From contig JBAZYK010000004.1 in the NCBI GenBank assembly GCA_041659405.1, positions 1-32,000 of the forward strand: DNA of 32,000 nt, in the 5' to 3' direction. The translations under genes and the position numbers were made by a program. Positions 1,053 through 1,840 of the stretch are shown in pieces. The DNA is from Candidatus Altimarinota bacterium. GTDB lineage: Bacteria > Patescibacteriota > Gracilibacteria > UBA1369. Position 1 is the first letter of the stretch. Each line of letters begins with the position of its first letter. Under the pieces are notes generated by a model that was not told the origin of the DNA, searched no databases, and saw nothing but the letters and a program-made list of their open reading frames with translations.

Positions 1053-1079
1053 AAGGAAAAGAAACATGGGAAATACGAA

Positions 1080-1168
1080 GGAACAGGAAAGTATAACTTT
1101 CACTGAGAGCACCTCGCAGGCGTGAGCCGAGAACTGTGCTCGAAGGGGAAGTTATACTTTCCTGTTCC
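1080..1168. repeat. Long imperfect hairpin element, copy 1 (43-nt conserved core at 1103-1145); possible bidirectional terminator between convergent genes
   Basis: Perfect 20-bp outer arms GGAACAGGAAAGTATAACTT (1080-1099) and AAGTTATACTTTCCTGTTCC (1149-1168). The core CTGAGAGCACCTCGCAGGCGTGAGCCGAGAACTGTGCTCGAAG contains a GAGCAC/GTGCTC stem and a GGC-GTGA-GCC tip. The element abuts the stop codon of the minus-strand gene at 1169. Confidence 0.8.
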
Positions 1169-1840
1169 CTATATCACTTTCCCCATGCCAATTTTATCTT
1201 TCAACGTATTGGTAAGATCAACCCCCTGCACACTCTGCCGCAAGCGTTCAAGTACTCCTTGAGTTTGATTAAGAGCTTCATTCAAAGTTTTCCCATCACC
1301 AATCGCTCCAATTGAATATGGTGCAGTTAAAGGTACACCATTTAGGGCAATCTGGCCATTTGGCAGCAGATCAAAGCCAACCGTAGAATTAGTTAAGCGA
1401 ATATTATTCACGCTTACAGCTTCCGCTCCTGCGCTCCACATCTCGTTTACAATATCCGTAAGCCAAATTACAGCTATCGGCTTGCCAACAGTAATTTGGA
1501 TTCCCGGACCTTCAACATCAACATGTCCGGCTAAAATCCGATCTTTTTTAATTTCATCCTGGACCGCATTCAAGGCTTGTTGACGGTTAGAAGCCTTATC
1601 CAGCTGGGACTCCAAATCTTTAATTTCAGCATTAAGGTTTTCATTTGTGGTTTTAAGAATCTGGATTTCGCGGAAAACATTGGCACGCGTATCACGACCA
1701 ATAATGTCCTGCACACCTCTAAAAGATCGTGACTGAAGAATGACCAGAAATCCCAGCAGAATGCCGGTTGTAGTAATGGCAATAATTTGAGAATTGAGTC
1801 TGCTTTTATGATGACCCGGATGAGTATTTTCGTGATCCAT
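1169..1840 (-). CDS. DUF881 family protein (YlxW/YlxX-like, cell-division cluster associated), N-terminal TM
   Basis: 223 aa. TM helix IIAITTTGILLGFLVIL, a coiled-coil stretch, and the motif LTDIVNEMWSAGAEAVSVNNIRL typical of DUF881. Confidence 0.75.
   Translation of the reverse strand: MDHENTHPGHHKSRLNSQIIAITTTGILLGFLVILQSRSFRGVQDIIGRDTRANVFREIQILKTTNENLNAEIKDLESQLDKASNRQQALNAVQDEIKKDRILAGHVDVEGPGIQITVGKPIAVIWLTDIVNEMWSAGAEAVSVNNIRLTNSTVGFDLLPNGQIALNGVPLTAPYSIGAIGDGKTLNEALNQTQGVLERLRQSVQGVDLTNTLKDKIGMGKVI

Follow-up and report, generated by a model that had tools for sequence, protein, structure and literature searches.

The hairpin that lies between two convergent genes at positions 1080–1168 (+ strand) of the analysed window, by which we mean the whole stretch of 32,000 nucleotides, raises the question whether it is a dedicated RNA module, as proposed in a first-pass annotation of the sequence, or one copy of a more widespread element. 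It reads GGAACAGGAAAGUAUAACUUUCA-CUGAGAGCACC-UCGCAGGCGUGAGCCGAGAACU-GUGCUCGAAG-GGGAAGUUAUACUUUCCUGUUCC and sits in a 116-nt spacer, whereby a 230-amino-acid ORF on the + strand (360–1052, taken from the ORF list, with a weak Pfam match to HTH_17) converges on it and a DUF881 gene on the minus strand (1169–1840; PF05949, E = 2.8e-25) abuts it with its stop codon at 1169, as the annotation had described. The arms at 1080–1099 and 1149–1168 are perfect complements over the 20 bp reported before, and the pairing extends by a U.G and a C-G pair to a 22-bp outer stem, P1 (1080–1101/1147–1168). Above P1 follow an A1102.G1146 mismatch, a CU/AG step (C1103-G1145 and U1104-A1144 paired), a tandem G.A (1105–1106/1142–1143, formed by G1105.A1143 and A1106.G1142) and a 6-bp inner helix, P2, in which GAGCAC (1107–1112) pairs with GUGCUC (1136–1141). 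The tip, referred to below as type B, occupies 1113–1135 and includes GGC-GUGA-GCC at 1119–1128 with the GUGA loop at 1122–1125. The tandem G.A within the CUGA..GAAG core and the GGC-GUGA-GCC tip were both pointed out in the first-pass annotation and are both found in the predicted fold; the core is indeed 43 nt long, but it does not fill the space between the 20-bp arms, which measures 49 nt. The outer pairing of CAUGGGAAA (1065–1073) with UUUCCCCAUG (1178–1187), likewise suggested earlier, appears in the minimum-energy fold, where it extends the + strand structure to 1065–1187 and reaches into the last codons of the DUF881 gene; by sequence comparison, this extension resembles the outer arm ends of a second copy in the window (AUGGGAAU/AUUCCCAU). 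The RNA minimum free energy of 1060–1195 is −61.6 kcal/mol, compared with −30.1 ± 3.4 kcal/mol for 200 dinucleotide shuffles (z = −9.39), none of which (0/200) folded as stably as the native RNA. As a separate observation, the region 313–624, at the start of and inside the HTH-like ORF, carries dense, overlapping GTCTATAGAC-type palindromes that also encode repeated SID/VDMS/VDTSID peptide motifs; these palindromes may be an array of binding sites within the gene of their own DNA-binding protein.

The hairpin is not the only one of its kind in the genome. A BLAST search against the organism's own assembly, a Peribacteria-type CPR genome (G000; 1.51 Mb, 98.5% complete, 21 contigs labelled C1, C3, C4, C6, C9, C11 etc.), led to the identification of a second copy and a half copy in the window as well as of copies on other contigs. 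Copy 2 (2713–2803, + strand) is located in a divergent spacer, 12 nt upstream of a murI-like racemase gene (2816–3628, + strand; PF01177). Its core at 2737–2779 is the same 43 nt as that of copy 1, and its arms are unrelated to those of copy 1 and fully paired. The half copy (2654–2682, minus strand; also present in the inverted-repeat list) consists of the 3' strand of P2, followed by GAAG and a right arm similar to the one in copy 1; it stands in inverted orientation and lacks the tip and the left arm. Both are located in the spacer upstream of a second DUF881 gene (1843–2577, minus strand; Pfam). The comparison of copies 1 and 2 further revealed an apparent mirrored 11-bp insertion in both arms of copy 1 (GGAACAGGAAA / UUUCCUGUUCC), which is enclosed by arm segments common to both copies, AUGGGAA on the outer and GURUAACUU on the inner side; judged by sequence, two independent insertions would not be an easy explanation for such a mirror-image indel. 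Elsewhere in the window, a 46-nt inverted repeat (30741–30842; 76% complementary, 10-nt spacer) is found downstream of direct repeats of ~190 bp (29933–30728, compared by eye); no kinship with the hairpin family is seen in the sequence of either.

A structure-aware regular expression uncovered a much larger subfamily in G000 with the core CUGA-RCACAUCC-GGGGUAGGGGCCC-UGUGUGY-GAAG. A covariance model, R1, was built from 24 copies, and the R1 search of G000 yielded about 34 distinct copies of an ~85-nt hairpin repeat, with copy 1 matched at C4:1079–1169 (65.3 bits, E = 4e-14) and copy 2 at 63 bits. The sequence-based checks that the first-pass annotation had proposed gave a positive outcome, namely further copies by BLAST, regular expression and covariance model, and strong covariation within G000 and across genera. 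In the 24-copy alignment, 94.4% of the cells are standard pairs, compared with 30–55% when the partners are slid, and double changes occur in 25 of the 34 pairs; the observed values were reached by none of 500 shuffles. The cross-genus alignment is 93.3% paired with a covariation score of 0.84 versus ~0.16. The unit that emerges comprises an outer stem of ~22 bp with free sequence, the CU/AG step, the tandem G.A box, an inner helix of 5–6 bp and a conserved tip. Nearly every subfamily has an outer stem sequence of its own, but the pairing is kept throughout, and the inner helix covaries as well (GAGCAC/GUGCUC, GGACA/UGUCC, ACACA/UGUGU, GCACA/UGUGC and AUGCA/UGCAU). Arm ends are shared only inside the main subfamily, the copies in the window and on C9, C11 and C1 having unrelated arms, and no conserved sequence was found at the stem bases of the family. 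Such a perfect mirror-image divergence of the arms exceeds what neutral MITE decay would give, a point that counts against the mobile-element reading put forward below. The statement that the hairpin is more than a simple palindrome is borne out.

Three types of tip occur. Most copies carry the type A tip CGGGGUAGGGGCCC; the type B tip, YC-CGCAG-(short hairpin)-CGAG-R, is present in both window copies and in the copies at C11:46850 and C6:96178, and a third tip, CGCCGUUGCGCCC, in two copies. Inner-helix types and tip types occur in the family in all four possible pairings, which indicates that the modules have been shuffled, and composite and half copies joined at the tip exist at C6:59094, C6:77351 and 2654–2682 of the window. 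The type B copies of the window belong to the same family as the copies of the main subfamily. The GUGA tetraloop is found in only three copies of G000, all with identical tips, whereas the other type B copies have GAA or AAA loops, and the tandem G.A box is replaced by Watson-Crick pairs in ~8 of the 34 copies. Thus, the two features that had suggested a docking module are both real in copy 1, but neither defines the family. Assignments to known motifs did not succeed either. Rfam 15 gave only sub-threshold matches to miRNA hairpins for the window, main-subfamily, Chloroflexota and Microbacterium versions. A hammerhead reading of CUGA..GAA was rejected since the core does not fit CUGANGA and there are only two coaxial stems, and a kink-turn was rejected since the tandem G.A forms a symmetric 2x2 loop without a 3-nt bulge and is replaced by Watson-Crick pairs in ~8 copies.

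All copies in G000 are intergenic, and they are concentrated in the most highly expressed operons. They are located at atpA|atpG, atpD|atpC, rpoD|greA, tuf|rpsJ, rplB|rpsS, rplV|rpsC, secY|adk, infA|rpsM|rpsK, rpsD|rpoA|rplQ, groES|groEL and frr|rseP, whereby some of the genes at the copy junctions were identified by their N-terminal sequences and others by Pfam labels. Twelve of the 34 copies fall into ~36 kb of contig C3, which is the rpoBC and ribosomal-protein region. With respect to the flanking genes, 17 copies are in sense, 10 in antisense and 6 in mixed orientation, which is a sense bias of roughly 2:1, and most copies lie ~20–30 nt upstream of the next start codon. Two further motifs were observed in these surroundings. 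An A/T-rich ACTAATTACTAATTA-type motif is located just upstream of many start codons in ribosomal-protein operons of G000 (C3:85012–85067, L055:815–885) and of a genome of the same genus, G001 (~25 places), and may be a shared leader or translation-initiation signal. The hexamer TAATTA is found within 40 nt on the 3' side of 26% and on the 5' side of 21% of the hairpin copies, compared with 5% of random intergenic windows.

This placement is what one would look for if the hairpin were a functional RNA module that is selected in host mRNAs, i.e., an intercistronic processing, stabilising or protein-docking hairpin that tunes large operons and spreads by host benefit, for example as an RNase III site like those in phage T7 early mRNAs or as a REP-like barrier to 3' exonucleases. 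Such a role would fit the accumulation of copies around the rpoBC and ribosomal-protein genes, their presence in the atp, groESL and tuf operons, the sense bias and the position ahead of start codons, as well as a stem long enough for RNase III, the RNase III and RNase Y genes encoded in G000, and the conservation of the G.A box and tip across genera. In particular, the enrichment in highly expressed operons and the sense bias could reflect selection for an RNA function and speak against a mobile element. However, the box is lost in the ~8 copies mentioned above and the tips are interchangeable, and the comparison with related genomes and with the direction of the host genes, described in the following, argues against this reading to a point where we consider it rather unlikely.

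G001 shares 72–86% nucleotide identity with G000 over syntenic regions and manages these operons without the element. At rpsM|rpsK, rpsD|rpoA and rpoA|rplQ, G001 lacks the complete ~84-nt unit together with its arms, and the element is likewise missing at both window loci. At the convergent spacer orthologous to the site of copy 1, G001 shows no more than a small GCCUCC-GCCUUA-GGAGGC hairpin that is flanked by A/T runs, so that copy 1 occupies the position of a small terminator-type hairpin. Since the arms are missing from the empty sites, they are part of the inserted unit and not pre-existing hairpins. The idea that the arms are local hairpins or inverted copies of the target was rejected on the same grounds and also because the arms of the main subfamily are common to several loci. 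A regeneration of one arm from the other by snap-back was rejected as well, since the same G.U pair and G.A box have been inherited by many copies. The comparison of filled and empty sites in G000 and G001 showed no evident target-site duplication, whereby the spacers are too diverged at this level of identity to give exact junctions. Exact-protein look-ups returned other assemblies of the organism that were all 100% identical and thus offered no polymorphic strains; the short contigs of these identical assemblies break inside the tip.

A search at the family level gave matches in 13 of 36 genomes and 12 of 25 genera, one of the genomes being a MAG labelled Candidatus Peribacteria, and the copies in other genera are located at gene junctions different from those in G000. 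Matches were found neither among 25 genomes of other families in the same order nor in a phylum-wide sample of 150 genomes, i.e., in 0 of 175 other Patescibacteria when both samples are taken together. In an exact-pattern scan of reference genomes, the type A core was detected in Peribacteria and also in two MAGs of Microbacterium, several of Anaerolineae/Chloroflexota and a single one labelled delta proteobacterium. The Microbacterium copies lie on contigs of 67–70% GC and are built in the same way, with perfect, GC-rich arms; one of them is located just upstream of gyrA. One Microbacterium copy and the copy of a Peribacteria MAG share an identical block of 26 nt, CAAUCGGGGUAGGGGCCCCGUUCUUG, of which the search pattern had fixed only 14 bases, so that the homology is a true one. 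In Anaerolineae, the same tip and CUGA/GAAG box lie within a unit of ~150–170 nt, with 15–18 tip-bearing copies per genome. This link is less certain than the one to Microbacterium, considering that some independent chance matches to the search pattern are to be expected. The Anaerolineae/Chloroflexota repeat, seen at loci L069–L097 around a CCGGGGUAGGGGCCCCGG hairpin, has no Rfam match. Its segments A/A' and B/B' are perfect complements, so a three-way junction is possible; the alternative fold is a local CUGA..GAAG hairpin. No match to the family was detected in viral contigs. A metagenome scan with the type B tip pattern gave no hit with the helix and stem of the family among the 120 matches listed, which look like chance matches, and a literature search for the core sequence returned a single, unrelated match. 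Taken by its sequence distribution, the hairpin family is neither species-specific nor confined to one phylum. The different positions in other genera and the occurrence in unrelated phyla with other gene contexts are both difficult to reconcile with a module selected for its role in particular host mRNAs.

A further indication comes from the strand. In every case, the strand carrying CUGA folds more stably than its complement, the difference being 3–22 kcal/mol. In the antisense copies, G.U pairs amount to 2.9 on the element strand versus 0.1 on the complement, and in the sense copies to 3.1 versus 0.35. Outside the invariant tip, the overall count of G.U to A.C is 33 to 5, with 10 to 0 for the antisense copies and 25 to 12 for the relatives, whereby this asymmetry is partly inherited within subfamilies, two columns giving 18 of the 33 G.U pairs. 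The ten antisense copies keep wobbles that become A.C mismatches in the mRNA, and there is no sign that they have adapted to fold in the host mRNA. Since G.U tracks the element strand whatever the direction of the gene, the constrained folded species would belong to the element's own life cycle. On these sequence grounds, the data argue for a single strand of DNA or RNA with fixed polarity as the constrained species, and not for the operon transcript.

Overall, absence at orthologous sites, differing junctions in the relatives, patchy spread across phyla and wobbles that follow the element suggest a mobile repeat instead of the dedicated docking module of the first-pass annotation, an interpretation that is supported only in part. 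The hairpin is a variant copy, with a type B tip, of a dispersed, non-coding, ~85-nt palindromic family. As the unit is gained and lost as a whole, we regard it as probably a small mobile element of the MITE/REP/ERIC/Correia kind that is not autonomous. Its propagation might proceed via a strand-specifically folded single strand, whereby the conserved core, i.e., the tip and the box, would be recognised by structure and the stem would only have to pair. Under such a mechanism, the arms would be free to diverge in mirror image while the core stays constant. Once inserted, the element would become part of operon mRNAs and form a hairpin of −40 to −75 kcal/mol there, which would be long enough for RNase III and could block 3' exonucleases or segment transcripts. 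According to the structure model, the 22-bp P1 stacked on ~14 more bp is a plausible RNase III substrate and 3'-exonuclease barrier, so that sense copies, and antisense copies to a lesser extent, should affect the fate of operon mRNAs. In the best reading of the data, such RNase III-sized hairpins in mRNAs are incidental to a mobile element.

It is conceivable, if somewhat speculative, that the family goes beyond this and represents a horizontally transferred, structure-recognised hairpin replicator without a known transposase family, whose tip and G.A box are read on one folded strand by an enzyme or a host machine. The presence in CPR bacteria, Microbacterium and Anaerolineae would then record that ultra-small bacteria have exchanged DNA with the organisms that are likely to be their hosts or neighbours.

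With regard to candidate mobilisers, Y1/RAYT (PF01797) had no match in the element-rich genomes G000, G006, G017, G023 and G025, and the RT, IS110 and TnpB families had none in G000 or G017; nor was a tip sequence found beside a transposase-like gene. Mobilisation of the retro-element, IS110 or TnpB type was therefore rejected for G000, and among the families searched there (Y1, IS110, TnpB and RT) no autonomous parent or cognate transposase of a MITE was found. G000 does encode two tyrosine recombinases, and these bring up the possibility that the hairpin is recognised as DNA by a tyrosine recombinase of the host or of an integron-like type, with an attC- or CTX attP-like fold, or by another structure-specific DNA-binding protein, and that it acts as extruded or single-stranded DNA and not as RNA. 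A conserved structure with free stem sequence and strand-specific folding would be in line with this, as these are also properties of attC sites. However, R1 had no match near either recombinase gene, the copies flank housekeeping genes and not cassettes, and it is the tip and not the stem base that is conserved, without R/L boxes, which makes such a site very unlikely. Independently of the hairpin family, two nearly identical stretches of about 120 nt (CGGAGAGCAAGCCAGAATCTGGCGGCAGAAATTTGCGGGTCT...) were observed in G000 at C1:166823–166884 and C4:59610–59671, one of them ~0.8 kb from a tyrosine recombinase gene (C4:60492–61106).

The least probable explanation is a bidirectional, structure-only terminator between convergent genes: a Rho RNA-binding domain was not found in G000 at its 98.5% completeness, so that termination presumably relies on intrinsic hairpins only, the minus strand has a U-rich stretch after copy 1, and the orthologous spacer of G001 has its small GC hairpin with A/T runs, but no T-run follows 1168 on the + strand, efficient termination would be lethal at most copies, as these are found within essential polycistronic operons, and copy 2 is located in the divergent promoter region upstream of murI. 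A promoter and terminator consensus scan of three family copies called none of them terminator-like and gave no match to a promoter consensus. For the same reasons, a reading as an intrinsic terminator was rejected, and the earlier statement that the hairpin lacks a U-tract and is not a classical terminator holds.

Small palindromic repeats occur in many bacteria. The present family is unusual in four ways: it has a conserved centre with mirror-image arms, its copies have spread through the core operons of a 1.5-Mb genome, the usual hairpin-associated mobilisers were not found, and a homologous core is present in distant phyla. These traits make it a tractable case for studying how a non-coding hairpin spreads and whether its insertions reshape operon mRNA processing in streamlined genomes. 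The family also calls for caution in the discovery of RNA motifs, as strong covariation alone does not prove a regulatory RNA.

Among known systems, the ERIC/IRU elements of enterobacteria and the Correia elements (NEMIS/CREE) of Neisseria are non-coding intergenic repeats of ~80–150 nt with long hairpins. They are inserted within or between operons in either orientation and are co-transcribed with the flanking genes, and RNase III processing has been reported for Correia elements. Like these, the family consists of dispersed intergenic hairpin repeats that are gained or lost as units, lie inside transcription units and operons and occur in both orientations. It has no sequence similarity or homology to them, neither a TA duplication nor an IHF site was seen, and it spans several phyla. 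Its conserved tip and free but paired arms are the reverse of elements with conserved terminal inverted repeats, and a MITE of that type was rejected since the arms share ends only within the main subfamily. REP/REPIN sequences are likewise extragenic palindromes in operons with compensatory stem changes, and they carry GTAG/CGTC tags (PMC3733652). Their units of 20–40 nt with the tag at the foot of the stem are mobilised by RAYT (Y1) transposases and are thought to move as folded single strands, whereas the present unit measures ~85 nt, has GTAG only inside the loop of the type A tip and no tag in the window copies, and resides in genomes in which no match to Y1/RAYT was found; it was thus not assigned to REP/REPIN. 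The attC sites resemble the family in being recognised by structure, in their mirror-image arms and in strand-specific folding. In attC sites, however, the conserved part is the R''/R' boxes at the foot of the stem and the centre is variable, in contrast to the family, which conserves the centre; with no R''/L''-L'/R' boxes at the stem base and no linkage to cassettes or an integrase, an attC assignment was rejected. Finally, RNase III processing hairpins with an internal loop lie between the early genes of phage T7, on polycistronic mRNAs that are highly expressed. The family is like these in placement and shape only, with many of its copies lying antisense to the operon.
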